NCBI GenBank assembly: GCA_036170735.1
Contig: JAVHPT010000028.1
Location: 1 to 44,384, forward strand
Direction of reading: 5' to 3'
DNA from: Patescibacteria group bacterium
Lineage (GTDB): Bacteria; Patescibacteriota; Gracilibacteria; BD1-5; UBA2023
DNA length: 44,384 nucleotides
The translations under genes were made by a program, and so were the position numbers. A model generated the notes under the pieces. That model was not told the DNA's origin. It made no database searches and saw only the letters and a list, made by a program, of their open reading frames with translations. Positions 5,189 through 37,252 of the stretch are shown here, piece by piece (the stretch's first letter is position 1; every line of letters begins with the position of its first letter).

Positions 5189-8100
5189 TTATTTCACTAG
5201 TATCTTTTCATATTTTCCAAGAGCAAAGACCTCTGGACGATATATGAAGTATGCAGTCACTGGTGGAAGAAGATAGGTACCAGCAAATTCTGGGCGAAAA
5301 TAATAGGTATATGTATGTTTATCTCCATACCCCCACTCTGCCATTGCTAAGATGCGATCATCTTTTGCCTCCACATGAGACCATACATTCCAATAATCAT
5401 ATCCATTTTGTCATGAATCTGAATTCAGTGCGCTCTCAGTCTTGAACACTCATCGAATTGGACGCCAACCACCTGGAACAAAGTCTTCGAGAGCAAGATG
5501 ATGCCAAGAGGTATGAGTATAGTCAGGTAAAGAAACTTGAAGTGTAACACGGTAGAGTTGTCCTTCCATAAAGGTATTCCCCGAGACAGGACTTGCGGCA
5601 AGAAATGTTCCATCACTACTCACTCATCGAGATTCATCGATACTCTCAAACGTACGGGAAACAGAAATATTTCCTTTTTGTATTGGTTTCATCGTAAAAA
5701 TATCAGATGGAACGTCATGAACAAGGAGCTCATAAAATGTTGGTACTGGAGCATCACGAGTAACTTCTATACTTTCGCCCACCTTTGATCGAGTTGTATC
5801 AACTTTTTGCCATGTATGCTCTGGGGAAAGTGAGAGATCAGCTATAAGGCCTTGGGCTCGTATAGCAATTTGCGAAGTGCCCTTTATGGGATTCATTGCT
5901 GTATGCTTTATAAGAGCATAGAGGAGTTGAATCTTCTCCTGCGTCGAAACATAGTATGATGAGAGGTCTGTGTCCCGAAGAAGTCCATCAAGTACATTCG
6001 CAGCATCTGGGGTACGACCACTGTCAAGGAGAAGCTGAGCATAGATAGCATTGTCAGCTCCCCTATCCCAATACCAATAATCCGTATCCTGTGGAGCGTT
6101 CATAAGAAGTGTAAGTCGCTTATCCACAGCATCAGAATATTGCCCAAGATACTGAAGTCCATAAGCATAGGCGAGATATCCATGACGTGATAATTTGGTT
6201 GGATCAATAACTTTTTCTAGTATTTTTGCTCTATCATTTTTCGCTCGTGCAAGCGTCCAGAAGACTTCTGCACGAAAATCTGGATCTGTCTCAAAAACGG
6301 TAGATCCGTTATCAAGAAGTCCGATAATAAAGTTAATACCATTATCGATATTTGCTTGCGGAATATCTACGCCAAGATCTCTAAAGGTAAATAGGCTCCT
6401 GATAACATATGGTGTCACATGATCATTTGCAAAATCATCATCTTCCCAATACTTCCATCCTCCTGAATAATGCTGCATTCGGAGAATCTTTTTTACTCAT
6501 GCATCAAGGTTTTCTTTTGCTTGTTTTGCATCGATAGTCGTGCTAACGAGCGATTGGAACTTGAGAGCAATCCCATTTGGGAGAGTACTCGAGACTGTTT
6601 GCTCAATACATCCATATGGATACTGAACCAATGAACGGATCGCAGTATCTGCATTAACAAGGAGTGATGAAGAGACTCGAAGAGAAACACGAGACTTATC
6701 AAAGTCCATTCCTACAGCCTTTGGAAGTGTGATCTCTGTCTTCGCTCCTGTCATAACGCCAAACTCTCTGGAAGTCGCCTCAAGAAGTGGGATTTCAGGA
6801 ATATGAATGGTTTTTGTAACACTATCAAGCACGTTTCACTGTTCAACAAGGGAAAGTGTATATGGAACAGTATCCTTCCAAGATGCTGGAACCGTGAGTA
6901 TAAAATCAGCACTCTTTGATTCACCAGGATTCAAGATCAGACTACGCTCTTGCTTGATCATGTTTCCTCATGTTCCCATAACAAGGGTCAATGTTGTACT
7001 TGTAACTTTTTTGGTTGAGTTAAAAGCAGAAGCCGTAATGGTTGTTGTATCACCAGGATAGGCAATATATGGAATGTGCGACTCGAGTGTATAATCTCGA
7101 CGAACCTGAATTGGTTTTTCAGCTACAGCAAAACGAGAATCCTTTGTCTGAGCAATGGTGATGATACGATAATCAGTTACGTTATCAGGAAGAGTAAAGG
7201 ATATCTTGGCATGTCCGGCCGTATCAGTAATCACAGAAGGATTATAATAAGCGGTATCTTTGAAGAGAACACGGGAAGAGATCTCCGTTCCTCCACCACC
7301 CTTATCTCCACTTCATCCATTCGAACCTTTTCGTGAAAGGAATCTATTTTGCTCCATACCGATAGCCGAGAGGGATGTTTTCATGGTGAATGGAAACTTC
7401 TGGAAAAACTTTGGTATAATATCAAGATCGATGTTTCCAAGGAGACGAATCAAGCTCTCATCAACCACCATAACAGCTACTTCACCTTGAAGTGGATTAC
7501 CAAACCTATCAGTAAGTGACAGACCGACATTCACTTGCTCTCGGTTTATATACTGTTCTTTATTAGGAGTAACTTGGAGTTTTGCCTTCTTATCACTCAG
7601 ATCTGTGACGATCTCCCCATATCCGACAGCATAGGAACGATTCCCATAAGTTGCACCTGGAGCAAATGCCGCAGCACCAATATAGACATTTGGGATGTCA
7701 CTATCATCGATGGTATATTCGCGAATGAGGGTATTCCCTGTCATCTGGATATATTCATGATCTATCACTCCTCCTCGTTCACGAGTAAGATAGAGATATC
7801 CTCCTGTAAATGGCGTTGTAATAAAGACTCTTGCCTTCTCGCCAAGTCGATAGACGGTTTTTTCTGGGATAACTCGAAGTTGGCTATCCTTGTTTACAAA
7901 GTCTCAAGCAACATAGAGAAGCGTGTCTGAAATACTCGAATCTGGAGGTGCCTCTTTTCCATCTGAGTTTGGAATAATCTTGAGATGGTATTCACCTGGA
8001 GATATTCAACGGGTTTCGATATCTAGTCCAGAACTCGTGAGAGATCCGCTTGCCACAATATCATCCTGCATTACTGGGATCATCGTTGCAGACATACGAA

Positions 8101-11005
8101 GATCATCCACTTTTACATTCTGATAGATGCGATGTATGAGCTCATAGGTATATTTTCCAGCAAGACTCAGATCCCATTCTCCATAGTGTGGCTTGACACT
8201 TCCAGTGATCTTTTCTCCAGGCTTGATAATCTTCTTCGTCGGAGTGAAGTCGAGTGGATTATCATATGCAAAAGTCTTGTAAGCGGCAGGCATCTTCGCA
8301 AGAAGTGTTGCTGGAGTCACCACCTCCTCTCCCGTCATTGGGTCTGCAATCGTCACCTCAGCGGTATACATGTAATCTCCATAGAATGAAGAAAAATCTA
8401 CAGGAATACGGAAAAATCCCATACCCTCGCTATCTATTACCCCTGTTCACTCAGTGTAAAACTCTGGTGTTGGCTCGAAATAACATCACCAAAAACAGTC
8501 ATTCCAATAATCATCCAGATAATGTTCATTTCGATAGATTCGATAGCTAAATGGGGCTCCCTTGATCTGTGCTCCATTGTAGTAATGTGCCTTCACAACA
8601 CCCTCAAGTGCAATAGTAGAAGTATAAATATCAATATACCAAGGAGTATTTGGGTCTGTATTGACCTTCTTTCTAAGGCTCGTCACGACACCATTCTCAA
8701 CATCTGGACTCTTCAAGGAAACGTCTGCTGTAAATGTTGGATTTTTGAATACTTCAACTTGGAAACTTGTATTACCATTACCTATATATCCATCCGCGCT
8801 TGCAAATGGGGTTACGGTGACATTATATGAACCAAGGGAAGCCTCTTTATTAAGGTCAAAATCAAAGGAAAGTGTACCATATTCATTCGGGTGCATGGTA
8901 GTATTTTTTACTTCTGTTCCAACAGGATCGGTTATGCTGACAACAAAACTTGCATCCGTTGGAATGGTGAGTTTGGTATCATTTTTTCGGAGGATGGCAT
9001 GTACATATACCTTTTCTCATGGAAGATAGAGACGGCGATCAGTATGAATATATGCGCTGTAGAGTGGTCGTGTCTCCCAAGAATAATCAGAGTCCTTGAG
9101 CCCAAAATTCCATCCCGTAATTCCATCATTCCATGTACTCACGACATATCCAAAGTGCCCATCACTAATGGATGTTGCCACAAAAGAACTGTATCGTCCC
9201 TCATATTCCCGCCATGGATATTCATTGGAGAGTCCATATGGAGTATTGTAATCATCTGCCTTAAGCTTGTCCTTTTGTGTCGAAAGAAATCCACCAACAT
9301 CTGTCTGTCAAACCATCACTCCTGGGGCAAATGATGAGGTTGAAAGAGGAAGATATATGATATCATATTTTTGTGTTGTTTTATTCCATTGCTCATTATA
9401 GGTACGAGAGATATTCTGAGAAAGGGTTATTGTTTGATTCTCTCGTGGTTTTCCTGTACTCAGATCCGTAACAAGGAAGCTCATCTTTCCGCTTGCATCA
9501 ACCTTCATAGTAATCTGACTATCTACAATAGAAAATACTCGTGGCGCGACAAACCGATCAAATCCACCAACATCTTCTGCATTACGGAATGCGAGGATAT
9601 AGAGTCAAGGGGAAAGAGACTTGGTTGGAGAAAAGTCCCGAACATCAAATGGAGCCATGAGAGCACCTGAATCAATGACAATATCCTTCTTCGTACACGA
9701 TGAAGTATCGCTTGAAGAAAGGAGACTATAAAGAGATGGCGTATATTCTTGTTTTCCCTCTTCTACCATTCGTTCAACCTTTGCATACCACTCAATGGAT
9801 ATTTTGCAGAGCTTGAGTGTATACTCATTCTTTGGAATTTTAAGTGCATAGAGCTTGGCAGGAAGCGGTTCATCGGCACGAAAGATAGTTCGATGATTTT
9901 CTAATCAAAGAGAAAGGAATGGTTTCTGAACTGGAGTAAAATCCATTTTCATATTTACCTTTCGTCCATAAATATCAGGAACATCATGGAGGGTGATTGT
10001 ATATTTTTGTCATTCACGAAAAGCTCCTATGAGACTTGCTCGGTTTGGAGTAAGAGCAATATTTGCTTCGGTGAGAGGAACACTAGGGGATATATCTAGC
10101 TCCTTTAGAAATGCCAATTTTGCATCACTTCGGTTCTTCATATATTCTGGACTATAGAGCTTCCCACTATCAGCATAGATATCTTCAGAAAAGTTGAACT
10201 CAATACGACTCTGTATGTCATACTCCGGTGAGAGCATATCAAGTACTAGTCCCGTCGCGGAAAATGGGGAAAGTTGTCGATCGACAATCGTATGAAAATC
10301 TCCTCAGACTCAAGCAATAATACATACCCGGAGATTATTCCTATCATAATCAAGGGTATAAGTTGCCTTGTCTATCTGGCCCATCTTACTTTCGGAAACT
10401 TTCAGAGTTTTGAGTTTCTGGAACTGCAATGAATCCCATGCTTCAGATATCTCACAACTTTGCTTTGGGTTGGTGTGGATATACCAGTGTATATAATCAG
10501 GATTAAGTCATGGGTATCCATACATATTCACACTATACGTACGTTCTCGAGGAAGTCAGGTGGGACTAATCTCTATATCACGAGGAAACTCGCTCTGAAC
10601 AAGCGTGATATCCCGGGGAAGACGGTACTTAGTCATCCGTATATCATTATATTTATCTGCATCAATCCTGAGGGTAGCAGACTTTTTCATATTATTTACA
10701 CTCACTCTCACATATTCCCCACTCACTACAAGTTGTCATTCGGATGACACGGTGGGATTAAAAGGATTCCCATCTAAGAAAAGTGAGTTAAGAATTGCTC
10801 AGGAATCAAGGATATTTCCGTCGTAGGTATCTATGAGAAAGTATGGCTTCGCCACAACAAACTGCATCACATTCCCCGATTGTTTCTCCTGTCTGGCAAA
10901 AGGAAAAGAAAGCGTCTCTGTCTCAAGTATGTAAGCATAATATCCGAGAGCCCCAACAGATACAAACGCAAGAAGCACGAGTAGTCATCGAAGTATTGCT
11001 TTCAT
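5189..11005 (-). CDS. Bacterial alpha-2-macroglobulin family protein with intact thioester motif (1,938 aa)
   Basis: Nine track fragments (5189-5374 up to 10010-10237) share one frame. I scanned every gap and found only TGA, never TAA/TAG. The N-terminus MKAILRGLLVLLAFVSVGALGYYAY is a signal/anchor helix. It carries YPYGCIEQTVSSTLPN (thioester), HYSGGWKYWEDD...HVTPYVIRSL (thioester domain) and a C-terminal ...DYWNVWSHVEAKDDRILAMAEW...FRPEFAGTYLLPPVTAYFIYRPEV (A2M C-terminal domain). Confidence 0.9.
6599..6610 (-). other. Thioester CxEQ motif (CIEQ) of the alpha-2-macroglobulin
   Basis: The reverse complement of 6599-6610 is TGT ATT GAG CAA (C I E Q), within YPYGCIEQ. Confidence 0.85.
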
Positions 11006-11263
11006 AGATTAAATGGAGTAAGGAACAGAACTTGCTTGGATTTCCGAGCGGGATGCAGACCTTCCCGAAGGATAGGTCAAATAGGGTGAGAAAAGTAAAG
11101 TGGAATTTTAGCTTTACGAACGACAATGCGGATCTTCGAGAGCAGAGCTCTCATATAAAAGGAAAATGGCTGGTAAAGTTGAAGGAATTATAGTAGTTTA
11201 TATCGACTTTGCAACACAAAATATGGGATTTGCGAAAAAGGGAAACATGAGTATATTCGTGAA

Positions 11264-12691
11264 GTGAAAAGCAAAAAAGTACCTACATTCCCTTGGTGAA
11301 TCCTCCTTGATTGGTATAAAAAAAATGGACGTCATGATTTACCATGGCGAGATTACTCATTTGAAAGTTCTAAATTGCTCCTTGCAAGATGAAAATATGA
11401 AAATGGGGGTTCGAGGGGAAGACACTGTCCGAATGGGGATGAAAACAGTATAATGGAGAGCGAAGCCAATATTGAGTGAGTTTGTTTTTCCTATGAGACC
11501 TTTGGTACTTTCGATCACGAAAGTACGGAGAATTGTGTCTGGAAAGAACAAGAAATACTCGTCTATCGCGTCTGGCTTTCCGAGATACTCCTCCAACAAA
11601 CTCAAGCTAGTCGTGTCGTTGGGTCTTTTGATCGAATGATCGAGAGATTCCCAACTATCAAGGATCTTGCTGAAACGGATTATGAAATTTTCTTTCCCTA
11701 CTATCAGTGACTCGGCTACTATTCTCGCGCTCGTAATATCCTGAAAACTGCAAAAATCGTACATGAACAATATAGTGGAATATTCCCAAACGATAAGAAT
11801 ATTTTGATGAAACTCCCAGGGGTATGACCATACACCGCTGAGGCAATACAGGCATTCGGTTATGGCATCCCGACTCTCTCTTGGGATACCAACTTAGAGA
11901 AAGTCTTCGCAAGATATTACAATGGAACGAAAGATACACGACTCGCGAAAGAGGAGAAACAAATAATTCAGAAGGACCTACTTTCTTTCCTATGCTGAAA
12001 ATGTGAAAATGGGGGTTCGAGGGGAAGACACTGTTTGAGCGATAATGAAAACAATAATTCGGTCGAGCAAAGCGAGGAGGAGTGAGTTTGACTTCCCCTC
12101 GAGACTTTTGGTACTTTTGGTCACAAAAGTACAGAAATCTGTGTATGAGGAAGTCTTATTCGTTCCATCAACAACGCTCTCATGGACTTCGCTGCACTCG
12201 TAGACTTGAAAAATCCTGCCAACATCGATTGGAGCAATTACCCTATCAGATCAGGGAGGTTCTATGAAACACGAGGAGGTCTTGAGAAAGTTGAAACAAA
12301 GAAGCAAATAGCCTTTCCCATTCCTGATGCGACTATCATCGTAATTCTCCATAAGGACCACAAGGTGTATTATAGCTCTGGTATCCGTCATCCTGAACTT
12401 GTGAAGGATCCAGAGTTCCAGAAACATGGATTCTTCGTTCCTCAGAATGACGGAAATAGAGAAATCTGAAACTGATATGAACCTTTCATACTTTCCCCGT
12501 CTCTCACTCGAAATACAAGAGAGTATGTCCAATGATATTTCCGTGAGAAATATGCCCTCGAACTCTCAGTACGTCCAGTTCATAAGAAATGGCTTTCCGA
12601 AGATGGAAAACCATATATTGCTGTAAACGCACAAGTGCAAGTTGGCGAGATACAGTTTGAGAAGTGGAACAAGAAGGGAGAGAAGATATAG
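11264..12691 (+). CDS. mutY: A/G-specific adenine DNA glycosylase MutY (about 475 aa) carrying two in-frame ~50-65-aa insertions
   Basis: One frame is open from 11159 to TAG 12689-12691. It contains LLDWYKKNGRHDLPWR, VYRVWLSEILLQQTQ, YYQGLGYYSRARN, LPGVGPYTAEAI (HhH-GPD) and a C-terminal NUDIX-like half. TGA falls at the Gly of GLGYY (11707-11709) and of GVGPY (11825-11827). The only in-frame canonical start before the LLDWY motif is GTG 11264, so the start is uncertain. Confidence 0.85.
11390..11538 (+). repeat. Intragenic structured repeat, copy 1 (inside mutY)
   Basis: A 149-nt block aligns without gaps to 11996-12144, at roughly 73% identity by eye. It begins with an in-frame TGA. It contains the hairpin GTACTTTCG-atca-CGAAAGTAC (11505-11526) and an outer stem TCGAGGGGAA (11411-11420) pairing with 11486-11495 using G-U pairs. 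Confidence 0.8.
11996..12144 (+). repeat. Intragenic structured repeat, copy 2 (inside mutY)
   Basis: It has the same length and codon phase as copy 1. It contains the hairpin GTACTTTTG-gtca-CAAAAGTAC (12111-12132), where C-G is changed to T-A relative to copy 1. Its outer 11-bp stem is TCGAGGGGAAG (12017-12027) with CTTCCCCTCGA (12092-12102). Confidence 0.8.
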
Positions 12692-17498: not shown

Positions 17499-19022
17499 TT
17501 ATTTATTTCGTTTTTTCTTGGAATTAGCTCTCGTAGATGCTCTATTTTTTTCCTTTCCTTTCTTTTCAGGCTTTGTCTCCTTATCTGTTCTGGATCCTAT
17601 CTCTGCACTTGGTTTAGTTTCATCATCGAGATAGTCCTCTCGCGAACCACCTTTTTCTTTTGGCTTGAACATACTCTTTCGTGACTTCATCTCAATATCA
17701 ACTGGCGTTCCTTCAAATCCAAAGAACTCTCGAATCTTGTTCTCGATATAGCGAACATATGAAAAGTGGAAGTGCTCGGCGTTATTTACAGAAATGACAA
17801 ATCTTGGAGGATTCACATCAACCTGAGAACCATAATATATCTTTGGCTTATGAGATTTGCGACTTCCAGTTGGAGCATGCTCATAGGTAATTTGCTCAAG
17901 GAACTTATTGAATATAGCCGTTTTTACTCGTTTATGACGCTCGATCTGGATTTTCTGTGCATGTTCGAGAACGAGATCGATGCGACGATTTTCTATCGCT
18001 GTCGTGAAAACAACTGGAGCATATGAGAGGAAATCAAACTTCTTTGAAAGATAATGCATATACCTATCGAGGATTGTGTCTGTATTCACTCCTGGTTTTG
18101 CAAGAACGATATCCCACTTATTGAGAACGAGGATAATCCCCTTCTTAGCTTTGAGTGCCTCTCCAACAATATGTTCATCTTGGTGAGTGATACCCTCAAA
18201 AGCGTCAATCACTACCGCAACAACATCAGAGCGTTCGATCGAACTATCCGCACGGAGTACACTCCACTGTTCGATATTGGCACTTCCAATCTTCCCTGAA
18301 CGACGGATTCCAGCCGTATCAATAAGGCAGATTTCCTGTTCATTAAAAGTAATAATCGTATCAATCGCATCTCGGGTTGTTCCAGGAAAATCTTTTACGA
18401 TCGAGCGAGTTTCTCATGCAATTGCATTCACAAGAGAAGATTTTCCAACATTTGGACGACCGATGATAGCGAGCTTCAGAATTCCATCATCATTAGACTT
18501 GTTTTCTTGGTAACTAAATCCCTGCAACTTGAGTTCTGCTGCAACTTTTGCCTTCATCTCACTAAAACCACGATTCTGGATAGCAGAAACAGGAATCACA
18601 TCTCCAAGACCAAGAGTAAGAAGATTGTATGACTCAACTGCCCGTTTTGGATTATCCGCTTTATTGGCTATAATAAGAACTGGTTTTCGTGAACGACGAA
18701 GTTTTTTAACGATAAATTCATCGAATTCTGTAATCTTATCATATTCAAGAACGAGTAAAATCAGATCCGAACGACCGATTGCCTCATCTACACGAGCTCG
18801 AACATCCACAAGAAGTGTCTCATCATCAGCACTCACAATACCACCACTATCCGAGAGAATATAGGAAATATCGTTTTCTATATCATCGATGTGATATTCG
18901 ATGATGTCTCGAGTCGTATTCTCAATATCTGAGACGATCGCAATCCGATGGCCAGAAAGCGCATTAAAAATACTGGATTTTCCGACATTTGGACGACCGA
19001 TAATGGTAACATGAGGAAACAT
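17499..19022 (-). CDS. der: Ribosome-associated GTPase Der/EngA (507 aa) with a basic C-terminal tail
   Basis: It has two GTPase domains (IIGRPNVGKSSIFNAL and IIGRPNVGKSSLVNAIA-G-ETRS, the G encoded by TGA 18414-16) and a KH-like domain. It ends in a Lys/Glu-rich tail ...KEKGGSREDYLDD...KKGKEKNRASTRANSKKKRNK. Confidence 0.93.
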
Positions 19023-19077
19023 TTTTACAAAAATTACTGAGTCTGGTGATTATAGGAAAACGAGAGAAAAAGCAAGT

Positions 19078-22000
19078 TTACTTTGCGGTATAGAAGAAGT
19101 CAATCTTATACCATACTTTTGCCACTGGAGTTCCTACTGAGAGAACTGAGATGAGCATATATCCATCTTGATATCCATACCCGAGAGTGACATCTTTCCC
19201 AAGAGCGTATATATTTCCATCTCGTCCGATAGCGGCTAGTGGTTGATACAGATTGTCTGTAATATACATTCACCCTGAAATCGACGGATCTGTGGAAGTT
19301 GCGGGTACAACACGATACAGGTCATCTGGTGTTATGATCACTTTTCCTGTTCCTGTGTCTGGATTTTTTGAGGCATCAAGCATCTCCGCATCTGAAGGAA
19401 GGGTGATAAACTCTGAATAGAGCGAACCTGATGAACCCATGATATTAATACGCATTGGATTATCATGGTTTGCTCAGGATACGGATATTGAGAGTCAATT
19501 TGGAAGACTTTGGAATACTCCATGCTCTGACATGGTAACTTTTTTACCTCCAAGAGTGAGCTCAACTCCGTTTCATGTAAAGAACGTTCCACTCATAAAG
19601 GCACCATTGATATTCGTACGAAGAGCTCAGGTGTTTAGGCGGGTAATATCTGTATCTGGTCGAACACGGAAAAGATGAATCGGTTCAAAAGGAATCTTCT
19701 CATCAAGTGTTCCGAGTACGAAGCCAGTACTAGTAACCTCGTTAATCTGGGGAATTGGGGAATATACCTCTATCGTAAGCACTTTTGTCGAGGTGTTGTT
19801 AAATGCATCGGTAACCTTGAGTTCTGCGGTACGCCGGCCAATAACATCAAATGAACCAAGTATGAGAGAATCGCCCGTGATCTGCACTCCACTTCATCAA
19901 AGTGAAAAATCATCATCAACTATGCTATCCTCATTCGTATCCACCGTAATATCTGGATCAACGATGACCGAGTAGGTATTCGTCTCCGTGATGAAGTCCT
20001 TGAGTTTGAGAGTTTTCTCTGTATAGACTGGGATCCTGATACTGTCTGGAATATCAATTACCGGAGCACTATGATCACTTGAAGCCTGTGGTGCAAAGAG
20101 GACAATTCCTGCATGAACACTGGTATCATCTGCGAGATTTCGGAGTCGTGCGGAATAGTACCCATTCGGATAGTCGATATTAAAATTGTAGACGTCACTG
20201 ATACTTCCAAGGTTGAGTATCATATAGTCGGCACCTCCCGCAATCTTTATTGAAGTGCCTTTTACTGGATCTTGGACAGAGAATCATCCTACACTGGAAG
20301 TAAGTTGCATATTATCAAGTACCGGCATTCCTATCATATCATCATTATATGTATATGGTTCGGTTGCAACCGATTCAGTCATGATATACAGTTTTCCATT
20401 TTGGAGTTTTGCTTCTATAGGTTCACTGAATCTGTATCCCTTATGGGCATCAAGTTTGAGGAAACTATCCGCATTTGTCCCTGTATGATAGAGGATAGTA
20501 GCAGGATCATTCCCCGTATAGAGGGTTCTTCCTGGTGAAAGAGCAAAGCTCGTCGCCTCAGTAATAATCGTCATCTTCGGTCATGAGATGACGAATGATG
20601 TGCTATCATAGACTCTATCGAGTGATCGTTTGACAGGGATTACTTGAATACCATGAAAAGATGCAATTGGAGCTGTATTCTCATTGGTAAAAAGATCTAC
20701 TATTCTCTTTGGAGTTACTGTTTCATCATGAGTTCAGATATTGACAACATCCCACTCAAGATACCGATCAAAGAATTCCATGCGCCATGCCTGTTCTTCA
20801 CTCTTCGCACTTGCAAAAGTTACAGAGAGACTTTCTGGTGTATTGAGACTCTCATGAAAAAAGTTTGGAGCACTAGGAATTTCGCCAGTTGGACCGAGAG
20901 TTTTAATAATCACTGTATCATCTTGAATCTTCGTTGGAGTTTGTGTGTGGTTGTATTTGACGTAAATAACACCATCAAGGAGAAAGAGGTAATCTTTATC
21001 TCCATCTTTATCAATATCAACGGTATCTACTTTCTCCTCTCACGTCAGAGAATCAAGATAGTCAAAGAGCCGAGTCTGAATCCCCGAAGGAGTCATGATA
21101 TAGATTCCCTGGAATACTGGAGCATATCATGCTGCAAGGTTCGATGAAGATGAAGGGGATACTGTTGTTGTAGCATCCACAAGACGTCCTATGCGGGCAA
21201 GGATATTCTTCGCTCCTGGAACTGAACTTGGATTGAACGAAGAAGCCTCTGAAATAGTATCTGTTGATTTAGGATTAAATTGGGTGTTGTATATATCTCT
21301 AAGGTTTGTTGTCTTCGAAGAAGGGATATCCGCAACCATCTCCCTTCTTGTTATATCAGGGGTGTATACGAGTTCTTGTGGTTTTTGTTTAAGGAGATCA
21401 ATAACATGCTGCATCTTCGCGGTATCATCATACTCTGCCTGGATATACTTGCGAAGAGAAGTAAACCGATCATTGTTATATGCAAGCAGTTCGCTCGTGA
21501 ACTTGGTTTGGTATTCCTTTGCAGATGGGAGATCCTCAGTGAGAGACTTCCCAAAAGTAGAAGCAAAACCATTTTTGGTAAATTCACTCTGGATAAAACT
21601 GGTAAATTGGTCTCACTCAAGAGTTTCTGTATTTTCATTTTGGAATGTCTCAATAATGTCTTTAAGCGCAGCAATCGATCCTGTGTGTTTATCCAGACTT
21701 GATTGCGCTTTGATATTCACCCTTCCTCATTGTATATTTACGTCTGTTCCGATTTTTCTTGGCATTCATCGGGTAAGATCTGTTGTGAAGTTGTTGATTG
21801 GCTTTACTGCTGCCCGCGCAAACTCGGTGATAAAGTCAGAGCGAAGTTGAAAGTTCACATGAGTGCTCACTCGAATCTCTTTTATTGCTGAGATCGAAAT
21901 ATTTGGGAATTGGATATTGAGGAAATCAAAAGGAGAAACTCCTTGGCGTTCTGTACGTTGTGCTATCACATCTCAAACTTGCCATTCTGGAATGAGATTA

Positions 22001-25000
22001 GTATTCTGGTACCAGCAATACATCGTAGAAATGAGCTTAAAGATCTTGAGAATTCCACTCAGTGCACCGAGTATTTTTGGAATCTTTGGTGGAGGAGGGA
22101 GATTTGGGAGAACAATCTTCGGGAGGGATGGAAAATCCGGAAGGTCTGGAAGATTTGGGATTGCTGGAAGAATCGGGAGGGATGGAAGTGTGATATTGAG
22201 TCAGAAGTTCGGAAGAGAGAGATCTGGAAGGTCTGGAAGCTTGATAGGAGCAAGGTTGAACTGGAATTCTGGAACAGATATATTGATGCCAAGCTGTATA
22301 TCAGAGAGATCGAGGATGATATTTGGCCAACGAGGGAACTTGATAACTGGTATCGATGGAATAATCATGGAAAGAAGTTTGTATTTCCAATATTGTAAGT
22401 TATATCGCTCATTGTGACACACTCCACACTTCGCACTCGTGTCGAAGAAAATATCAATAATTGGTTGCCATCATTCTGCAATTGCCTTGAGAAGTACATA
22501 GAGTTCTGCCCACTTACGGAATCGGATACCATTGTCCTTGATCCATCAGCCTGTGAACTGTGCGATGGTGTTGATATTACAGAGAATCTGTGACATATAC
22601 CGTTGCTTCCATGTCACATATTTCTGGAGTTTTATCGGGAACTGTTTGTATTCTTCTATCCGCTTAAGGTTCTGCGTGATACTGTTGAGAAATCCTCCTG
22701 CATTCAGTGTGATCTTCGCATTGGCACACTCAGTTGCTGATTTTCCTACACACCAATTGCTCATCGCCTGATCTATTTCCCGCTTGTAGTTATTGATTGC
22801 TCGAGCGTATCGATCCAGTTCTCCTGGGAGAATCCAAGGAACATTGATAGCGATATTCCTCGTGGAGAGTGTGATAAATGGGAGTTTTCCGATAAACTTG
22901 TATGCGGCTCGCATCGCGTTGAGTCAAGATGCAACAGTATTGATAACTTTCCCGGCACTTCCATTTAGCTGTTGCTGTTGCCATGCAGCAAAACCCTTTC
23001 CAACTCATGAAGTCACACCAAGTTTTGCTGAAAGTGCCTTCGTGGCATTGGTATTATCATATGCACTTCCCATCTTTGTCTTGAGATTATCATATCATTG
23101 AGAGATCGATGCTGCACTAAACTTCGAGAGGAAGTCTTGAAATGAGCCATCAAACTGGGCATGTTGTCCAAGGGTTGTCGGTGTAAATATAGTAATACTT
23201 GGCGGAGTAAAAAGTGCCTTCACGATCTCATCTCCTTGTCGCTGAAGCCAGTCCATAACAAAATCAGGAAAAGCGGCAATACGCTTATTTTTCACCTTGA
23301 TGATGTTCCCAAGATTGAATGGTTTTGAGCTATCAATCTCAATCCCGATCTCTGTTCCACTCTCTCAAGAACCAATACGAAGAAGTGGTCATCCCGTAAA
23401 ATTCTGGGGTCCACGGCTGGAAAGTTGAGTATAGATAGCATTCCGTCTTGTTGTATTAGGATTTTTTAGGTATGCTATCACATCACTAGTAAAGCTTGCA
23501 TTTTGTATACTTGTTGTCGTTGTTGCTTGCATATTACAACTTCATGCATTCCAAGTATCAGTGATATCTCCAAGTCATGAAACGCCTGTCACATCACCAT
23601 CACCTTCTGAGCCATCTCACTTGCAGAACGGCATTGGTGCAGCAACAACAATACAGTTTCCTCATGGAACAAGAGGAGAGAGTCCTGGTGGTGGAATATA
23701 TCACTTTAGAAGAGCTGGAGCAAGACAAACCGCCATCCCCATTCAAAGAGTAAGAGTTGGTGTTACATATATACGAACCGTATTTGTTGGATCTTGTATT
23801 CAGAGATATCAACCAGCTCAAGGAACAGGCGCTGAACACACTGTACTAAGTCCAAGAGGAGACGCTGGATAAACTGTAGGAATAGGAATACATCCCCAAG
23901 GTCAGTAGAGAGGAAACCCAGTAAGTGATGAAAATTGTGGAATACCTGTAGCTGGTGTAAGTGTTCCAAGTGGTATCCCAAAGAGAGTTGGTACACTTCC
24001 AGGAGCAAGTGGTGCCCAGTTAAGAGGAAAACTCATACACGAACCTCATCCGAATCAGCATCTAAGCCCATTCACGAGATTCCCCGCCATATCACTGAGC
24101 TCCTGAACTGATGAGGTATCAAAGCCAATATCGAACGAATTACCTCCAGAATTCAAGGTTGCATGTATCAATGATCACGATGGTGTTCCAGCATTGCTAT
24201 TTACTAGCTTATCGAGCATTTGTTGTCGATCGTCATGTGTCATGACCGCATCATCTGGTTTCCCATCCCCATTCGTATCCACTGTTTCCATACTATCAGG
24301 AATTCCATTGTGATTGTTGTCGATAATCTGAGAGGCGATACCTTCTGGAAGTTCTGCGGAGGTAAATGTGCGAGATCCCTTCACATAGTCCCGCGCGCCT
24401 GGTCATGATCGCCAGAGAATCATATCAGCTCAACAGGTTGTTGAGTTCTTGAAACCGACATCTCCATAGATATCTGCTCCAGATTCTCACTTTTCAAAAT
24501 CCCCTACCAACATCTCACCATAACTTGCAGGAAGCGCCTTGAGTTCATACGTGATAGTAAGTGTCTGCCCAGCTGGTATATCTCGACCAGCAAAATAGGC
24601 GTCATAGTCCCCTGTTTCAAGATAAGAAAAATCGCGTGTGACGGTTCCATCTCATAAGGTCACTTGATATTTTGTGGTATCTTCCGATGAAAAGATTGCT
24701 GGGATTTTATCAAGATACTCTATATTTTTCGCTGTTTGATTTCAAGTATTTTTGAGTGTAATACTGACTTGTATCCGATCTCATGAGTGAATCGTTGAGT
24801 TTGAGATATCATGGAAACTCCGTGCAACCTCCACTCAAAATGCTGGTGCATACTCGCTTTTTATATACGTATCCATACTTACTCCCGCCGATGAAGTCTC
24901 TGCAGAAGAAAGAGTGGTACCAAATTCATCCGTAATATGAGATAGGTTCTCAGGATTACTTATATCGAGAGGAGATCCATCTCCTGTCGGAAAATCTGGC

Positions 25001-28000
25001 CGAGGGTACTGATAATATACCTCACTCTTTAGTTGTGTATCATCTGTTCCTGTATTAGTTGTTGGAGAAACTCCGAGCGTTCCTGCTGGAATCTGCGGGA
25101 TACTATCCATTTTCAGAGCTCCACCGACTGACTCAGATTGAGCTGAGAGAGTGATTCAAAGATTGGAATCAAGAATCTTCTTTTCAAATACCCCATGTGA
25201 GGCCGTACCATAGAGGACCCCAAGCTCTCCTCATTCAGTGAGATAGACGATATCATCCCGCCCATCAGCATCCATATCATGGATTTTGAACTGGGAGATT
25301 CCCGATGGAACACCACCGCTTACCCCAGGAACCTGTATATCCATCCGCGTAAATTGCCGCTTATTATTATCAATATATATGAGACTTCATGAGTCATTCA
25401 CACCCACTATATCTGCATATCCATCATGGTTAAAATCTCCGATTGAGATTCCCCGATTCACAAGATCAGGAACATAGGAAATGCTCTCCCGAAAGTTAAA
25501 TTTCCCACGATTGTTGAGAAGAAGATCGAGATACCCATCTGTATGAAGTGCTATGAAATCCTCATAACCATCATTATCCATATCACGATGTGCAAAGGAG
25601 GTAACAGGTGATGCTGTTGCTGATGTCAGTTCTGTTCCTATAGTTTTATCGATTCCATCTTGCTCTGTTTCTGGAGCATGTTCATCAACATGGGCAACAG
25701 GATCTCAGAGATTCACAAAAGTAAATGTATGAAACCATTTTGTGGCTTCACCAACAGTATCTCAGGCGGCATAAGAGAGGAGCATGCGATTCTTTCCTTT
25801 CCAACCCACTCATGGAGTCTCAGGAGTAATCGCAAGCGAATCTATGGTATTTGGTCCATTCTTGACTGTATCAATTTCTTTGGTGGAAGAATCCTCTGTA
25901 AACCGATATCAGAAAGTGTCCAAAGAAAATGTACTCTCAGAAAATTGCAAGCTAGAGACACTGGACGTAGCATCAATAGTGGGAGTATTGTAGGTATTCG
26001 CATGGAATGGATCAGCTGCTTTTTCGATTGATTTTTTCTTATCGGTGGCATAGATGAGTTTTCCGATAATTATCCCTCAAGCATTGATATCCATCACAAG
26101 TGCTTTGGAAGAATCCTCTGTATCTGGAGTCAATGAAACTCATGATGCAAGCAAGAGTCGTCAATCTTTCCATACCGTTACAATTGCCTCACTATTTCTC
26201 GATAAGATAAGATTATTTCCAACTACTCACGTCGTAAATCCAGAAGTGTTATCAAGTGCAAGGCGAATATGTCCATCATGAAGCGTGGAGAGGCAAGAAG
26301 AGATGTCGGAGTATATACCTCCCGAATACGAACAAGTATCCAGGAGCGCATTATCCATATGATATACCGCTCGAACAATCGAAGCGTGTGAAACCGTATC
26401 AGTGACGCCAAGTACAGGAAATCATTGTTCAACAGTTATCTTGGGAGTAATAACATTTTCTATTTGACTCGCGGCAGAGAATCCACCTCAAGGGATAATT
26501 GAAAAGAGAGTGGTTGTTTTATATGGAGAATCAAGGAGGGTACTAACTGCAAGGCTCTGTCCAGAACCTGGAAGAGTATTGAAGAGGATATCCTCACCTT
26601 CTCGTAGGAAGTCTCCTCAGGCGAGTACGGTATAACGAGCATTGTAATCGGGAAGAAAATCGAATTGTTCTCGAGCTCATTCGATATACGTCGCATAATA
26701 TGGTATCCCCTTTATACTATGTTCTCAAACAGCATCCGTATAGGTAATAGTTGATGATGCAAGCTCGGGAACCTGCACGATATAATAACCACTTCTCTCT
26801 GGTACTCTATATTCCCCATTTGCAAAGGTTACTATTGTCGGAGATTCGTTATTACGTTTTATGGTTCCAACAAGTGAAGTATGGGTTTGATTGCTATATC
26901 GATCACGAACAGAGAAAACGAGATTTCCTCACTCTTCCTTGTGGGTTATGTACATCGGCATTCATGGAGCAAGAGAGAAGGTAATATCAGGAATCTTCCC
27001 AATACCTGGGATATCTGCAACGAGTTCATGATCTCCTGCACGAGTTCATGGAGTATATGTAAATGATGCGATACCATTTTTAATCGGAATTGCCTCTGAA
27101 TCAAAATACCCAGCATCTTCTGGAAGAGAAAGTGCAGCAACAGAATTGAATCCTGTGAGGATATTACTGGCACCATCGACAATTCGAAGGGTCATAGACA
27201 TGCCAGTTCCTCATACTAATGGGGTATTTGGTCGTGCAAGGATGAGTCGTGCCTCTTGAACAACAGTGATAGTTGATGTTGCATGAATATTGGAATCCGC
27301 AGAAATATTAATAGAAATTGTTCCCGCACTATCTGCACCAAGGAATAGTGGAATCTGTGGCTCCATAGCATCAACGTGGATGGATGTTTTGTGATCTCAA
27401 ACCGCATCGATGATATATCCACCATTCATCTCGATATCGACACTATGAAGGTTTGGGGAAACAAGATTTCAGAGCACATCTTCCAACTCTACCATACCGA
27501 GCGTATTTGATCCGCGTACGATCATGGATGAGATGGGAGTGAAAGATATCTTCGTAAGTGGACCTGACTGAACTGCGAAAGTTATATCACCGCTTTTCCC
27601 GTCTGCATCCTCGAAAAGAAGATGATATACTCATATCTTTTTACTGTATTTTTCTGGAAGGGTAAATTGCGAAGATGAAACCGTGATTCATGACTCTATC
27701 AGAGTGGCATCTACACTATCATAGATATCCATCTTAAGAGGAAATCTTGCAGCAAAAGTATCACCGCTTCCATTTTTGACAAAAAATTGGAATGAAGCTG
27801 GAGAGGTAGAGGTAACATCGATAGACGAATCTCAAGTTGGAAGAACTTCAAGATATTTATCAGAAACATGGATAGGAAACGTATCACCAGTAACAGTATA
27901 AAAGTCCCCTCATGGAAGTGGAATTTTGATGACAGGTTGGAGTGTTACATCAGCAATATTATCTCCACTTGAGAGAACAAATTTTGCTCCAGCATCGTTC

Positions 28001-31000
28001 ATCTCGGAAACACTTGGTGATACTGCAAGATATACCAATCATGGACTCCTCACTGGCGTGAGTGTCACTTCTGTTCCTTCTGGCATGAGGAGACGGGACC
28101 CATTTTTCGTATAGTACACCTGAACATCCAGAACATCATTCATCCCCATACTTGTTCGTGGCATGGCATAAACAATCTTTCCTCATTCGTAAAACTGTTT
28201 TGTGAGGGTAGCACTCGCGCTCGCACTTAGTGGTGGAGCACTTGGAGAATCTTTTCCTAGGGTGCTCGATCCGCAGGAACCCGCAAAAATACGTGGAGGA
28301 AGGAGAGATTGTATCCAACACAGAATTGCCTGTGGCCACTGAAAAAGATTCACTCCATCTGGAGGTCAACATTTATCAGAGTCTCGGTACGGATTATTAT
28401 CACCTCAATCATATGGATCTGAAGTATTGAGTCCGTTGATCTCTGCAAGGTGTATATTATAATCATTTTCAATCTGGTTTACTTCACTATTATCAGTCGA
28501 GGACGGAAAAAATGAAGTCAATCCTAGGTACGCGATCTCATAGGAATCAGAAAGCGTAGGCAACTTTGGTGGACTCGCATATTCTGGTTGCCCAGGATAC
28601 TCATGGGAATATGAAAGCGACGTTTCTATAGCCTGCTTATATTTTACAGTAACATCTGGATTGAGCCAATTCTTTGCCTGAAGCACTTTTACGATAAACT
28701 CATCTGAAACATATTGATTCCAGTCGATAGGAGCGGGTGGCAATATTCATCATGAAAGATATCAATTTGCCTCAATATCCATAGCGGAAAGAGATGTGGA
28801 GTTTTCTTTTGCAAAGATAGTCTGCCACTCGCTATCCGAAACTGTCTTGAGCCACGCACGAACAGAAGCCACGTCCGTTCATGGAGTGTTAAAAAAGTTA
28901 GGATATGTGAGATGAGCGATATTCCCTTTTGGTGTCAAAAATTCAACGTAACGAATCATATCTACTGGAAGCGATGGCGTTACTCCATTCTGTTTTGCAG
29001 CAGCAATCTCATCATCAGTTGGAGATATATGGTGAAGTAGTGATGGTATAGTATGAAATATCTGGTTCTCATATGTTGTTGTGTCAACGGATGATTCTGT
29101 ATCTCCTCCAATCATGATACATGTACGGGCAATCCTTTTTATTACCTGCCCATCAAGAGTGAGCATCCCTGCATAACATGATTTTTTACTATTTTGAGAA
29201 TCATAATCAAGTAGACTTCCTGTAAAAGTTGGAACAACTGGAAGAATATCATGCTGCGTCAGACATGTATATCGTGGCGGATGTGGAACAATCTTAGATC
29301 AGCAAGCTCAAAAAAACATTGATCAAAATCTATTTAACGAAGACCATTCTTTCGGAAATATATCGAAACAGGAGTTCCCAACTCCAATGGCTCATGAGAT
29401 TCATGAATCACCATCTGGGTTAGGATATGAAAACTCATGAGGAGGTGCGAGACCATACTGATATTTTGTATCGAAACAATCCTGAAGAGATGCTGGATCC
29501 ATGCGTGGAGTCTCTTTCATTCCCCCAAGAGAAAATATCGGCTGACTAAATCCTGAAAGGCTTGTTGATCCGGGAACTTCGTCCAAAACGTTTGTAGCAT
29601 CCGAAGATCCTGCCACTCTGAGAATAGAGTTTCATCACCAGTATGACTGCAACCTTGCCTTCCCAGTATTTGGATCAAAACATGAGTATTTGCTATCCCT
29701 ATAGACATTTACGAGTTCTTCTGTGTCATCTTTCATTTTCTGTATCTGCCCTGATACTGACATAACATCATACGCAGTATTTGCCTCTACCAGGACATCA
29801 CGACCAAACTGAGATGTTGCGATATTGGATCAGCGAGCAATAGTACATTGTTCTGGAAGTGTTACTCAGGTACTCATGGTTCCAAAAAAGTAGTTGTTGT
29901 ATATCTGAGGAGCACCAGTAGCTGTTCAGGAAGATAATGGGGAATATTCTGAACCACTGAGAGCTACTCACGTAGACGTTACTACCTGATCAAATATTGG
30001 TATCCTCTTTGCAATCTTTTCATCTATAATAGCCTTATCGATACTTGTTTCTATTACATCATTGGCTGCACGAAGGGTAGAACGGGCAACTTCATCCATG
30101 AGAGTCATGGAAACTGGAGAGAGATCTACATGCACTGTTGAGCCACTCGTATATCTTCCAGCATTGTGAACAAACAACATTGCATCACCAAGTGTTTTCT
30201 CATTGATGATACTCTTGAAGTCTTTTAAAAATGATTGAATAGGAATCTGTGTCTGGATATCAGGCGTCTTCATGATCGTTCCGCTATCAAATCCATCCTC
30301 TCATGGAGCGATACCAAGAGATGCAAGCGTATCATTATTTTCTTTGTTGTTTACCTGATTATATTGTAATAATGCCGTATTGATATCTCCCAGAAGATAC
30401 TTTGTAAACCGCTTATAAGCAACATTCTCGGCATTTTGCATGGAAAGTCCATACTGGAAAAGGCTACGGAGATTTACACTTTTTGACTCATAAAAACCAT
30501 CATAATAGAATACCCTAGGGGGTACCGTAGATGGTGTGAACTTTCCACTCTTCGTATAGAAGTCATGTGTTTTATCGAGGAAGTTCTTGATCTTTGGGAT
30601 ATCTTGACCTATATCCCATGAACGTCAGACAGATGGATTGATAACACCATGCCATATCTCAGCTTCAACATTATTTCGTGTTGCACTCGGTACCGTCTCA
30701 TAGTGAGCAGAACGATCATTGTAAACAAACTGCTTATCAACAAAGTCTACGTACGGATACATGCTCGGGAAATATTCGCCGTCTTGTCCAACCATAGGAA
30801 TAGGAATATTCCCGATCAGCACGGTACCAACAAGATGAGAAACTCAGTTCTGTCCATCTCACTCATAATAAAGTCGCTCATTTTTCGCAGCTATCACTGC
30901 TACAGGAGTATCCTTATCCACAACAAAAAGTGAAACTCGTGTTCAGCCAAGATATCACTCAATATCCTTTGCATACCGTAATACTTCCCCATGATCCGCA

Positions 31001-31170
31001 TTGTACGTCGCTGTATCAACAAAAATCGAGACAATATCCCGATAATTCTCTGGTTGTGCCTCCGCGACATCAAAAAAATCTACTCGAATCGTCTGAGAAA
31101 CAAGTAAACTAAAGATAAGAAATCCCGAAATGTACTTCGACCAAGGAAATGAAAACCGGTTTTTTCGCAT
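19078..31170 (-). CDS. Giant secreted/cell-surface multidomain protein (4,030 aa)
   Basis: About 20 track fragments from 30955-31170 down to 19078-19269 share one frame. I scanned all 202 sequence lines in that frame and found about 95 TGA but no TAA/TAG between ATG 31168-31170 (TAA six codons upstream) and TAA 19078-19080. The N-terminus MRKNRFSFPWSKYISGFLIFSLLVSQ is a signal/anchor. Internal Ig-like, DUF11/CARDB-like, FG-GAP/VCBS and Ca-binding motifs are listed separately. Confidence 0.85.
22066..22245 (-). repeat. Leu-Pro short tandem repeat (coding) within the giant protein
   Basis: Translation: IKLPDLPDLSLPNFGLNITLPSLPILPAIPNLPDLPDFPSLPKIVLPNLPPPPKIPKI. At the DNA level it is an imperfect CTGGAAG/CTTCCAG periodicity. 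Confidence 0.7.
23560..24060 (-). other. Cys/Gly/Pro-rich hydrophobic module within the giant protein
   Basis: Translation: CGFGGGSCMSFPLNWAPLAPGSVPTLFGIPLGTLTPATGIPQFSSLTGFPLYGPWGCIPIPTVYPASPLGLSTVCSAPVPGAGGYLG...MAVCLAPALLKGYIPPPGLSPLVPGGNCIVVAAPMPFCKGDG. It has 8 Cys, a very high P/G content and about 20 TGA codons. I recognised no family. Confidence 0.5.
24247..24327 (-). other. Thrombospondin-type-3-like Ca-binding motifs within the giant protein
   Basis: The translation DNNHNGIPDSMETVDTNGDGKPDD contains tandem DxDxDGxxD motifs. Confidence 0.55.
24540..24790 (-). other. DUF11/CARDB-like adhesion domain within the giant protein
   Basis: Translation: GDRIQVSITLKNTGNQTAKNIEYLDKIPAIFSS...AGQTLTITYELKALP. 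This follows the pattern of the conserved repeat domain found in bacterial surface proteins. Confidence 0.5.
25240..25590 (-). other. FG-GAP/VCBS-like repeats within the giant protein
   Basis: The motifs are DMDNDGYEDFIALHTDG, GDFNHDGYADIVGVNDSG and HDMDADGRDDIVYLTEGG. Each is a D-x-D/N-x-D-G-x-x-D Ca-binding loop spaced as in integrin-alpha/VCBS repeats. Confidence 0.7.
26900..28100 (-). other. Bacterial Ig-like (Big-type) beta-sandwich repeats within the giant protein
   Basis: My translation includes ...IPIKNGIASFTYTPGTRAGDHELVADIPGIGKIPDITF..., ...GDITFAVQSGPLTKISFTP..., ...ADSAGTISINISADSNIHATSTITVV.... These resemble the invasin/intimin-type Ig repeat signature. Boundaries are approximate. 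Confidence 0.5.
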
Positions 31171-31434
31171 AGAGATTTGCGATCTTTAAGAATCTTTTAA
31201 GCCACGATATTTTATGCCGATAAATATATGCTTTTTCACCGCTAAAGCAAAAGGAAAATGAAGAAAAGGTGAAAAAAAATTCGACAAAGTAATGATTTTG
31301 TATATTATGCGCCAGCTGATGGGATTATTGGGTATTTTGTATGGAATTGTAGGGATGCTTTTCTCTTACAATACAAAAGTTTGCCCGAGACTTTCTCACA
31401 CTAAATAAATACCAATACTCCTTGTGTGGAATCT

Positions 31435-31510
31435 GGGAATGTAGCTCAGTTGGTAGAGCAGGGCCCTTTTAAGGCCAAGGTCGCGGGTTCGAGCCCCGCC
31501 ATTCCCACCA
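31435..31510 (+). tRNA. tRNA-Lys (anticodon UUU), CCA encoded
   Basis: The sequence GGGAATG-TA-GCTC-AGTTGGTA-GAGC-A-GGGCC-CTTTTAA-GGCCA-AGGTC-GCGGG-TTCGAGC-CCCGC-CATTCCC-A-CCA folds as a cloverleaf. The 7-bp acceptor and 5-bp T stems are perfect, the T-loop is TTCGAGC, and the anticodon TTT is at 31468-31470. There is one G-A mismatch at 27:43. Confidence 0.92.
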
Positions 31511-33139: not shown

Positions 33140-33218
33140 AGGTTATTTTTATGGTAAGAAACTCTAAACAGTATATCAAAAAGTATTACGAAATAAAATG
33201 AAAATTTATACTGAAGGT

Positions 33219-33252
33219 TAAAAAAATAAGAGATCCCTATTGGGGATCTCTT
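33219..33252 (-). terminator. Rho-independent terminator ending the minus-strand cargo operon
   Basis: A 10-bp perfect stem AAGAGATCCC/GGGATCTCTT (33228-33237 / 33243-33252) is followed on the minus strand by A-TTTTTTT. Confidence 0.7.
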
Positions 33253-33267
33253 GGAAATATCAAAAAA

Positions 33268-33417
33268 CTAAGCTCAAAGCAAACAACGTAGTAGATTCTT
33301 ATCTATTTCTTCAGACTCTGAGGAAGATAAGTTCTTAAACTCCACCGAAAAAGTGATAGTACCTTTTCTTTTTGAATTTTGAGGGATTACGTATGTATTT
33401 GGTTGGAGTTTTTTCAC
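33268..33417 (-). CDS. Possible small protein (49 aa, GTG start)
   Basis: An open frame ends at TAG 33268-33270, 16 nt before the terminator hairpin. It has no ATG start and no family. Confidence 0.25.
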
Positions 33418-33468
33418 AGTGTCTACAAAGGAATTAAATCTTTGAAAACACTGTACCCGAAGGAAGGA

Positions 33469-35486: not shown

Positions 35487-35509
35487 TTTTTATTCATTAC
35501 TTTTCTCTT

Positions 35510-37236: not shown

Positions 37237-37252
37237 AGTTACTCTTTGGGTC

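Follow-up and report, generated by a model that had tools for sequence, protein, structure and literature searches.

We examined a 44,384-nt contig from a Gracilibacteria-lineage Patescibacteria group bacterium (JAVHPT010000028.1, assembly GCA_036170735.1; this whole stretch is called the window), whose gene for the A/G-specific adenine glycosylase MutY carries two in-frame copies of a structured repeat element. TGA is a sense codon in the window and only TAA and TAG serve as stops, leaving open reading frames (ORFs) of 4035 aa (19081-31185, minus strand) and 1939 aa (5192-11008, minus strand) that exist only under this reading. With TGA taken as glycine (code 25), the MutY motifs GLGYYSRARN and LPGVGPYTA reappear in the ORF at 11177-12688, whose frame is unbroken through both repeat copies. 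Synteny, like the source labels of related sequences, indicates Gracilibacteria. The gene itself (11264-12691, plus strand) likely starts at the GTG at 11264 and has 475 codons including both inserts. Its identity is given by PF00730 homologues (best E 1e-272) and by matches to MutY structures in the PDB (E about 1e-28); the HhH-GPD glycosylase core, the MutY motifs and the C-terminal domain are all present. The four cysteines of the Fe-S cluster loop are absent from the residues after INNALMD (12150-12300), here and in all close orthologues, which points to a cluster-less MutY clade.

A first-pass annotation had noticed the two copies as equal-length blocks, 11390-11538 and 11996-12144, aligning without gaps at roughly 73% identity. 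We count 109 identities over the 149 positions, with 38 of the opening 39 nt identical, and the similarity runs on to 11541 and 12147. A 30-mer common to both blocks occurs exactly twice in the window, against an expectation of 0.00. Each block opens with an in-frame TGA, at 11390 and at 11996; these are 606 nt (202 codons) apart and hence in the same codon phase, and the frame stays open, also as first described. Copy 1 (11390-11541, plus strand) lies between LPWR and YRVWLSE (site 1), and copy 2 (11996-12147, plus strand) lies before the R.INNALMD helix (site 2). Both belong to the ORF-type subfamily (D) of the family described below, copy 1 being the more degenerate.

The structured parts of each copy are an outer stem (P1), a 3′ hairpin (P3) and a 3-bp pseudoknot, all on the plus strand. 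P3 is GTACTTTCG-ATCA-CGAAAGTAC in copy 1 (11505-11526; 9-nt arms 11505-11513 and 11518-11526, 100% complementary), encoding ...FGTFDHEST..., and GTACTTTTG-GTCA-CAAAAGTAC in copy 2 (12111-12132; arms 12111-12119 and 12124-12132), encoding ...FGTFGHKST...; the arms do differ by the C-G to T-A double change to which the first-pass annotation had drawn attention. An outer stem had been proposed as well, perfect in copy 2 and with G-U pairs and one bulge in copy 1. For copy 2, a stem search, the minimum free energy (MFE) fold and the cmsearch alignment place the P1 arms at 12017-12032 and 12085-12102, the stem being near-perfect over 12017-12030/12089-12102 (93% over 14 nt). For copy 1, the cmsearch alignment and MFE fold place the arms at 11411-11426 and 11479-11496, where we find the G-U pairs and the bulge together with two non-standard pairs. 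The pseudoknot strands in the window were placed from family alignment columns 113/115/116 with 133/132/131 via the cmsearch alignment: in copy 2, GAC at 12103-12105 faces GTC of the P3 loop at 12120-12122 (3/3 pairs), and in copy 1, GAC at 11497-11499 faces the loop at 11514-11516 (2/3 pairs standard). Plus-strand fold z-scores against shuffles were -2.6 and -4.0 for the two blocks.

Comparison with other MutY proteins confirms that both copies are inserts. LPWR and YRVWLSE are separated by 73 aa here and by about 4 aa in Geobacillus MutY; site 2 lies about 8 aa ahead of R.INNALMD and carries no insert in several orthologues, being empty in P0007, P0009, P0027, P0028 and P0118. The MutY relatives show 40-56% identity and range from about 330 to 515 aa in length. 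In many of them precisely site 2 is occupied, by an insert whose last residues are F[GD]TFxxKS[TMI], the hairpin-encoded peptide, and a few of these proteins carry the source label Candidatus Gracilibacteria. Orthologous site-2 copies were found in loci L014-L022. Among the orthologues compared, site 1 is occupied only in the window, plus a decayed element remnant in its closest relative, L023 (ETIETLDSSLHSE versus ETFGTFDHESTEN). Site 2 of that relative (L023:10830-10990) holds an unrelated hairpin-rich insert with CCCCCTTGATAAAGGGGG, GTCACACGGTGAC and CCCCCTTTCTCAAGGGGG.

Insert length differs among the mutY orthologues, with the frame kept in all. The outer stem has been swapped wholesale among them with pairing retained (GGGGAAGAC/GACTTCCCC, GGGGAGAG/CTCTCCCC, GGGGGGCGAAA/TTTTTTGCCCCCC, GGTGGCAA/TTGCCACC and AAATTTCAAA/TTTGAAATTT), and the hairpin shows the change GGTAC/GTACN to GATAC/GTATN. 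L014, L015 and L019 read the 5′ core in another frame than the window does, but the 3′ hairpin in an unchanged one. It is therefore the nucleic acid that is conserved and not the peptide; the two window copies alone had already led to the proposal that structure is under selection. An AlphaFold2 model was available for the database's own gene call, P0001, which begins inside copy 1 and has W at the TGA positions (mean predicted local distance difference test score, pLDDT, 83; predicted template modelling score, pTM, 0.73). In this model insert 2 is coil with pLDDT <50 between confident helices at 166-186 and 230-250, and as modelled it fits a tolerated surface loop of MutY.

A dispersed family with a covarying fold

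A metagenome scan found at least 120 loci matching the conserved 3′ module, several contigs having 2-3 copies. We built a covariance model, R1, from 53 non-redundant copies (alignment A3), none of them from the window. R1 matches both window copies at full length, copy 2 with 90.6 bits (E 3e-18, 11998-12140) and copy 1 with 72.9 bits (E 2.5e-14, 11392-11534); the next best score elsewhere in the window is 12.8 bits, and there is no other element there. Over the loci searched, window and relatives included, R1 gives 111 matches at E<=1e-9. Covariance searching of metagenomic sequence, which the first-pass annotation had suggested, thus brought the number of further copies above 100. Every site-2 mutY copy of the relatives is found by R1 too, as is a copy lying between genes in a syntenic relative (L017:777-910).

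The family consists of non-autonomous repeats of about 125-150 nt in genomes that read TGA as Gly (Gracilibacteria-type); by a crude measure of ORF gain, TGA is apparently sense in 117 of the 131 contigs. Four subtypes can be told apart: A, B and C are the typical intergenic forms, and D is the ORF type that includes both window copies. Conserved sequence reaches about 12 nt beyond P1 on the 5′ side and 3 nt beyond P3 on the 3′ side, and the unit so delimited contains no promoter shared among copies and no conserved terminator. An element specific to mutY can be set aside: the family is dispersed, and the nearest relatives of copy 2 lie elsewhere, in dus (82%), dnaX (77%) and a miaA-like gene (76%); in the same family comparison it shows 72% or less to other species' mutY copies and 71% to copy 1. 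ORF-type copies therefore appear to spread or homogenise among genes within a lineage.

The sequence had been thought to belong to no described family, and this has held up. Rfam 15, with its self-cleaving ribozymes, introns, riboswitches and omega/bridge RNAs, gave no match to the window or to 13 related loci under gathering thresholds, and at E<=10 only chance-level matches to eukaryotic families in the element region; in the literature on Gracilibacteria and on Candidate Phyla Radiation (CPR) bacteria we found no description of such repeats. Two pattern scans of viral contigs yielded 0 matches, which argues against a phage link. The element-encoded peptide had no match in a collection of 5.8 billion proteins, in which only one candidate shared a word with it. 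An 18-mer of the window 5′ core had 13 matches in reference genome contigs, all due to chance and in GC-rich genomes. The existence of the family outside the window, and the pseudoknot, are new relative to the first reading.

The family fold comprises a long-range P1 (15 bp), a conserved internal domain, P3 (9 bp) and an H-type pseudoknot in which bases of the P3 loop pair with 3 nt located 5 nt upstream of P3. P1 and P3 were recovered by RNAalifold, and the three pseudoknot pairs were the top three by mutual information in an unbiased scan of all column pairs. Columns 115-132 form standard pairs in 100% of cases (GC 25, AU 18, UA 6, CG 4), columns 113-133 in 98% (UA 34, AU 11, GC 4, CG 3) and columns 116-131 in 94% (CG 31, AU 10, GC 8, UA 1). 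For the whole structure 97.0% of cells pair, against 82.6% in shuffles (0/500 shuffles reach the observed value), and slid registers pair at 42-55%. Changes on both sides affect 17 of the 27 pairs (190 cells), so the additional copies strongly back the covariation first suspected from the two mutY copies. G·U outnumbers A·C by 38:9 in alignment A3 (p = 2.5e-5) and by 80:16 in alignment A4; this excess indicates that selection for folding acts on the plus strand, the sense strand of mutY. Two single strands of the internal domain, ACUGUYUGAGCGGGAUGAA and UAUAGCGAGUUU, are invariant around a variable middle.

A T-loop or tRNA-like reading of GGTTCGA was rejected, the commonest subtype having GGTTTTTAGGGG at that position. 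Some copies are chimeric: in L083:1486-1619 (minus strand), L111:106-238 and L134:1071-1250 (minus strand) the P1 5′ arm has been swapped for a hairpin, GGAGGTTTGCCTGAATGGCAAAACGAG, which breaks P1. A mini-version, made of a short local hairpin and the P3/pseudoknot module, lies at the contig end in L049:12-90, L063:7513-7591 (minus strand) and L085:3207-3285 (minus strand), adjoining a GATTC...GAATGAC motif. These three contigs have a GC content of about 0.57 and come from a standard-code organism, with accA/accD/accC/fabZ nearby; the mini-versions could reflect a wider distribution, horizontal transfer or chimeric assembly.

In-frame copies and strand polarity

Genes around the copies were called by means of a codon model, whose calls for L020 reproduce an independent gene table. 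About two thirds of the copies are intergenic (66), with 24 sense and 5 antisense copies in ORFs. The sense in-ORF copies are in-frame in at least 10 unrelated gene families; hosts confirmed by Pfam besides MutY are RNase R (RNB), two glycosyltransferases (GT1/GT4), one of which carries an antisense copy, two AAA ATPases, DnaX, endonuclease III (Nth, HhH-GPD) and Dus. Every ORF-embedded copy is open in the frame of its host. Among type D copies, 25 of 27 have an open sense frame (0.46 per frame versus 0.11 in shuffles), and in 31 of the 66 copies of types A-C none of the three frames is open. Where the intergenic consensus has stem motifs with stops, UUUUUAGGGG/CCCCUAAA, type D has the paired stop-free motifs UUCGAGGGG/CCCCUCGAG or UUUGGGG/CCCCAAU instead, which makes in-frame residence inside genes possible. 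Pairing is kept equally in ORF copies (96.5%) and intergenic copies (97.3%).

Intergenic copies have no preferred orientation toward their neighbors. The upstream gene is on the same strand as the element in 30 cases and on the opposite strand in 32, the downstream gene in 24 and 34, and 21 copies lie antisense between two co-directional genes. When contigs are scored by the majority strand of their gene bases, 35 agree with the element and 34 oppose it. No flanking protein recurs within +/-4 kb of the copies, where the ORF clusters that do occur are explained by synteny. A riboswitch or leader was rejected, downstream genes being diverse and orientation to genes random.

Two further repeats were seen near copies. 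In the glycosyltransferase gene with the antisense copy, which is likewise in-frame (L092:927-2735, minus strand), there are at least 10 copies of a short in-frame repeat peptide, IQNTK[YD]KVQNGE, which is a second ORF-colonising repeat family. A palindrome resembling repetitive extragenic palindromic (REP) sequences, CCTGGATTC-N(8-14)-GAATGACGG, often adjoins the element, just 3′ of intergenic copies (for example at L026:4470-4510, L044, L052 and L102). It also lies within an element on the minus strand of L033, where it interrupts the P1 3′ arm some 60-110 nt 5′ of the hairpin beginning at reverse-complement position 548; given this nested insertion, the REP-like repeat is probably mobile too.

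The copies have a strand polarity of their own. They are co-oriented on all 11 of the 11 multi-copy contigs. The GC skew of the flanks, taken in element orientation, is negative in 49 of 64 contigs (approximate p = 1e-5), and its gene-strand-independent component is negative in 39 of 45 (approximate p = 5e-7); the effect of the coding strand on GC skew is small in this clade, as judged from trusted gene calls. Orientation that tracks skew with no bias toward genes follows a replication-type asymmetry and not transcription. The leading strand is usually G-rich, and under this assumed convention the folding plus strand would be on the leading-strand template.

Origin of the family and rival explanations

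We consider it probable, well short of certain, that this is a new non-autonomous, structured interspersed repeat similar to the Rickettsia palindromic elements (RPEs), mostly intergenic, with a stop-free subtype that sits in-frame and is read through. Such an RPE-like palindromic element colonising ORFs in-frame was among the origins first proposed for the mutY blocks, and it is now favored by the more than 100 additional copies, by the strong covariation, and by the at least 10 unrelated gene families with in-frame copies that accompany the intergenic ones. The family would be mobile, its stop-depleted type D lodging in-frame within genes, and two such copies would occupy surface loops of MutY. 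Transcription and translation of the gene presumably run through the mutY copies, each of which would contribute a disordered loop of about 50 residues to the protein, and the fold would be kept for the element's own propagation, not for any need of mutY. As to the mechanism of spread, propagation may proceed via a trans-acting enzyme that recognises the fold, or by gene conversion between copies, and may be linked to replication.

Several observations weigh against an RPE-like repeat. Neither a transposase, a reverse transcriptase nor an HUH enzyme is associated with the copies in flanks of +/-4 kb. The element ends have no terminal inverted repeats, with CAGAAA at the 5′ side and P3 at the 3′ side extending beyond the P1 arms; no target-site duplication was seen in type A flanks, and no filled/empty pair of near-identical sites was found. 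ORF-type copies often start near TGA and end in ..CTGA, which may be a 2-3-nt duplication or a part of the element. With a G-rich leading strand, the strand bias is at odds with the simple models for IS200/IS605 elements and group II introns, which put the active strand on the lagging-strand template, and the p-values for this bias are approximate, related genomes making the contigs partly non-independent. For the P3 core, invariance is a product of the pattern used in the search, which does not hold for P1, the pseudoknot and the closing pairs. To have a covarying pseudoknot together with invariant single-stranded boxes is unusual in a miniature inverted-repeat transposable element (MITE) and typical of functional RNA. 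Finally, site-2 copies retain the fold across orthologues of only 40-56% protein identity; to keep it there takes purifying selection on the resident copies, their repeated replacement or gene conversion.

The last two of these points lend weight to a functional non-coding RNA or cis-acting RNA module (protein-binding, processing, catalytic or a retro-element RNA) that is multicopy through use by the cell or a partner enzyme, its ORF copies being by-products or acting on the mRNA. We hold this to be a serious reading, clearly less probable than an RPE-like repeat. It would explain why selection for folding affects the plus strand only (more G·U than A·C in both alignments), why the pseudoknot covaries with four pair types per position, why the single-stranded boxes are invariant, why pairing is as good in ORF copies as between genes, and why the fold is held at one mutY site across deep divergence. 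It is hard to reconcile with copies that take no orientation toward flanking genes, 21 of them antisense between co-directional ones, with a unit that lacks a conserved promoter and terminator, matches nothing in Rfam beyond chance even at E<=10 and has no associated protein gene in its flanks, with an orientation that follows replication-type skew and not transcription, and with copies that are chimeric or broken. A regulatory or recoding element particular to mutY, another of the early suggestions, is disfavored in the same way, most copies being intergenic and without orientation preference toward genes. About as probable, in our judgment, as the functional RNA is a broader alternative in which the family is more than selfish DNA. 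It would then form a class of its own, new and confined to CPR bacteria that recode TGA, of structured RNA with a pseudoknot or of single-stranded-DNA elements. Its members could be the non-coding partners of an enzyme that mobilises them or uses guides, or small RNAs with a catalytic or processing role, and their polarity would reflect a new replication-coupled mode of spread able to land in-frame in essential genes. The polarity also speaks for an oriented chromosomal site acting at the DNA level, such as a recombination, replication or segregation signal or an architectural repeat like REPs and bacterial interspersed mosaic elements (BIMEs), with polarity itself selected. Co-orientation on multi-copy contigs, skew tracking independent of gene strand (39/45 contigs) and the lack of gene-orientation bias all agree with it, and P3 looks like a recombinase core, with 9-bp inverted arms around a 4-6 bp spacer. 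We nevertheless find it improbable: a double-stranded site would neither favor G·U over A·C nor need a pseudoknot, the stem sequences vary freely as protein-recognised DNA arms do not, known polar sequences are short oligomers, and presence or absence at orthologous sites resembles insertion.

It had also been suggested that the blocks are removed at the RNA level. An intervening sequence absent from MutY could be removed in an intron-like way or bypassed by the ribosome, as in T4 gene 60 and the yeast mitochondrial ‘byp’ elements; flanking TGA codons spaced by 150 nt would mark where the ribosome takes off and lands. In favor of this, the added unit is exactly 150 nt long and strongly structured, copy 2 is flanked by in-frame TGA at 11996 and 12146, and many ORF-type copies have the start near TGA and the ..CTGA end noted above. 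An open frame would be needless for excision or bypass, however, yet every ORF copy is open in its host frame and type D, the stop-depleted subtype, has lost the intergenic TAG/TAA motifs. The codon downstream of copy 1 is TGG, not TGA; insert lengths vary among orthologues with the frame always kept, most copies are intergenic, and there is no likeness to known self-splicing or self-cleaving RNA. This makes removal or bypass very improbable. A simple internal duplication of MutY peptide with incidental stems, which would account for the window having only two copies, both in mutY, is refuted by the more than 100 copies elsewhere, mostly non-coding, by the different frames of the 5′ half in different orthologues, and by the strong covariation. 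A diversity-generating retroelement with template and variable repeats was rejected, the mismatches between the copies not being adenine-specific.

If the family is an RPE-like repeat, selfish structured repeats inside protein-coding genes, for which the Rickettsia RPEs are the paradigm, gain a second case that is independent of the first and unusually clear, and this from the little-studied, uncultured Gracilibacteria. The dual constraint on it can be seen directly, in stem pairs exchanged for stop-removing pairs that preserve both folding and coding. Such repeats would account for unexpected differences in length among CPR proteins and for seemingly disordered inserts in them; assemblies can break at the repeats and gene callers can be misled by them, and a covariance model is now available for masking and annotation. 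A covarying pseudoknot, selection on one strand and a replication-linked polarity, with no associated enzyme in the flanks, together pose a mechanistic problem.

Other window features and comparison with known systems

Elsewhere in the window, a tRNA gene (31435-31507, plus strand, 72.6 bits) overlaps the end of a 557-aa ORF (31472-33142, minus strand) whose N-terminus is serine-recombinase-like by eye (YTRVSTDEQ), and after this ORF GC content is lower (0.33-0.36) at 33000-38000; together these may be an integrated mobile element. A 44-nt direct repeat with 82% identity (18424-18467 and 18961-19004) lies inside the ORF at 17502-19049 (minus strand), which looks like EngA/Der by synteny with the tandem-GTPase gene of relatives (MMR_HSR1 twice, KH_dom-like). 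The repeat may represent duplicated G-domain motifs and is probably ordinary.

The mutY elements and their family can be compared with several known systems. Integron attC sites are imperfect palindromes of 60-140 nt in which structure is conserved over sequence, one strand is active and orientation is tied to replication. The element is alike in these respects. However, it has no cassette array, integrase or R/L boxes, its internal loops are strongly conserved in sequence, and attC sites have no pseudoknot.

With the palindrome-associated transposable elements (PATEs) derived from IS200/IS605, and with REPs and their REP-associated tyrosine transposases (RAYTs), the element shares the lack of terminal inverted repeats and of a clear target duplication, a subterminal 3′ hairpin, strand-specific folding and a replication-related orientation bias. 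For IS200/IS605 elements, Ton-Hoang and colleagues are said to have described in 2010 an orientation bias relative to replication. The element has one hairpin only (P3), however, with no matching left-end hairpin, unconserved 5′ flanks and no conserved target tetranucleotide, and no TnpA, TnpB or RAYT gene was found in its flanks. The bases upstream of its hairpin covary with the hairpin loop and not with a cleavage site, and its folding strand is the C-rich one, opposite to the expectation for a lagging-strand template.

MITEs such as Correia/NEMIS, ERIC, BOX, QMITE and bcr1 are short, non-autonomous, AT-rich interspersed repeats with structured transcripts, sometimes fused in-frame to ORFs (PMC10969869). 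The element is likewise short, non-autonomous, AT-rich, interspersed, structured and sometimes found in ORFs. Unlike MITEs, it has P1 arms that are internal, no terminal inverted repeats, no clear target-site duplication, and no related insertion sequence within +/-4 kb, which sets it apart from a classical MITE.

The closest analogues are the RPEs, which are about 150 bp long with a stable stem-loop, occur in many copies, both intergenic and in-frame in unrelated housekeeping genes, and add a conserved peptide apparently compatible with the fold of the host protein (PMC10969869). The element resembles them in size, stem-loop, copy number and the mix of intergenic and in-frame sites. To our knowledge, no transposase has been identified for RPEs. 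They belong to Rickettsia, in another phylum than the Gracilibacteria-type CPR genomes with code 25, and we compare the two by description, claiming no membership in RPE families. On this basis the element would differ in having a covarying pseudoknot and invariant single-stranded boxes, in that only one stop-depleted subtype enters ORFs while the commonest subtypes are intergenic and contain stops, and in an orientation tied to GC skew.

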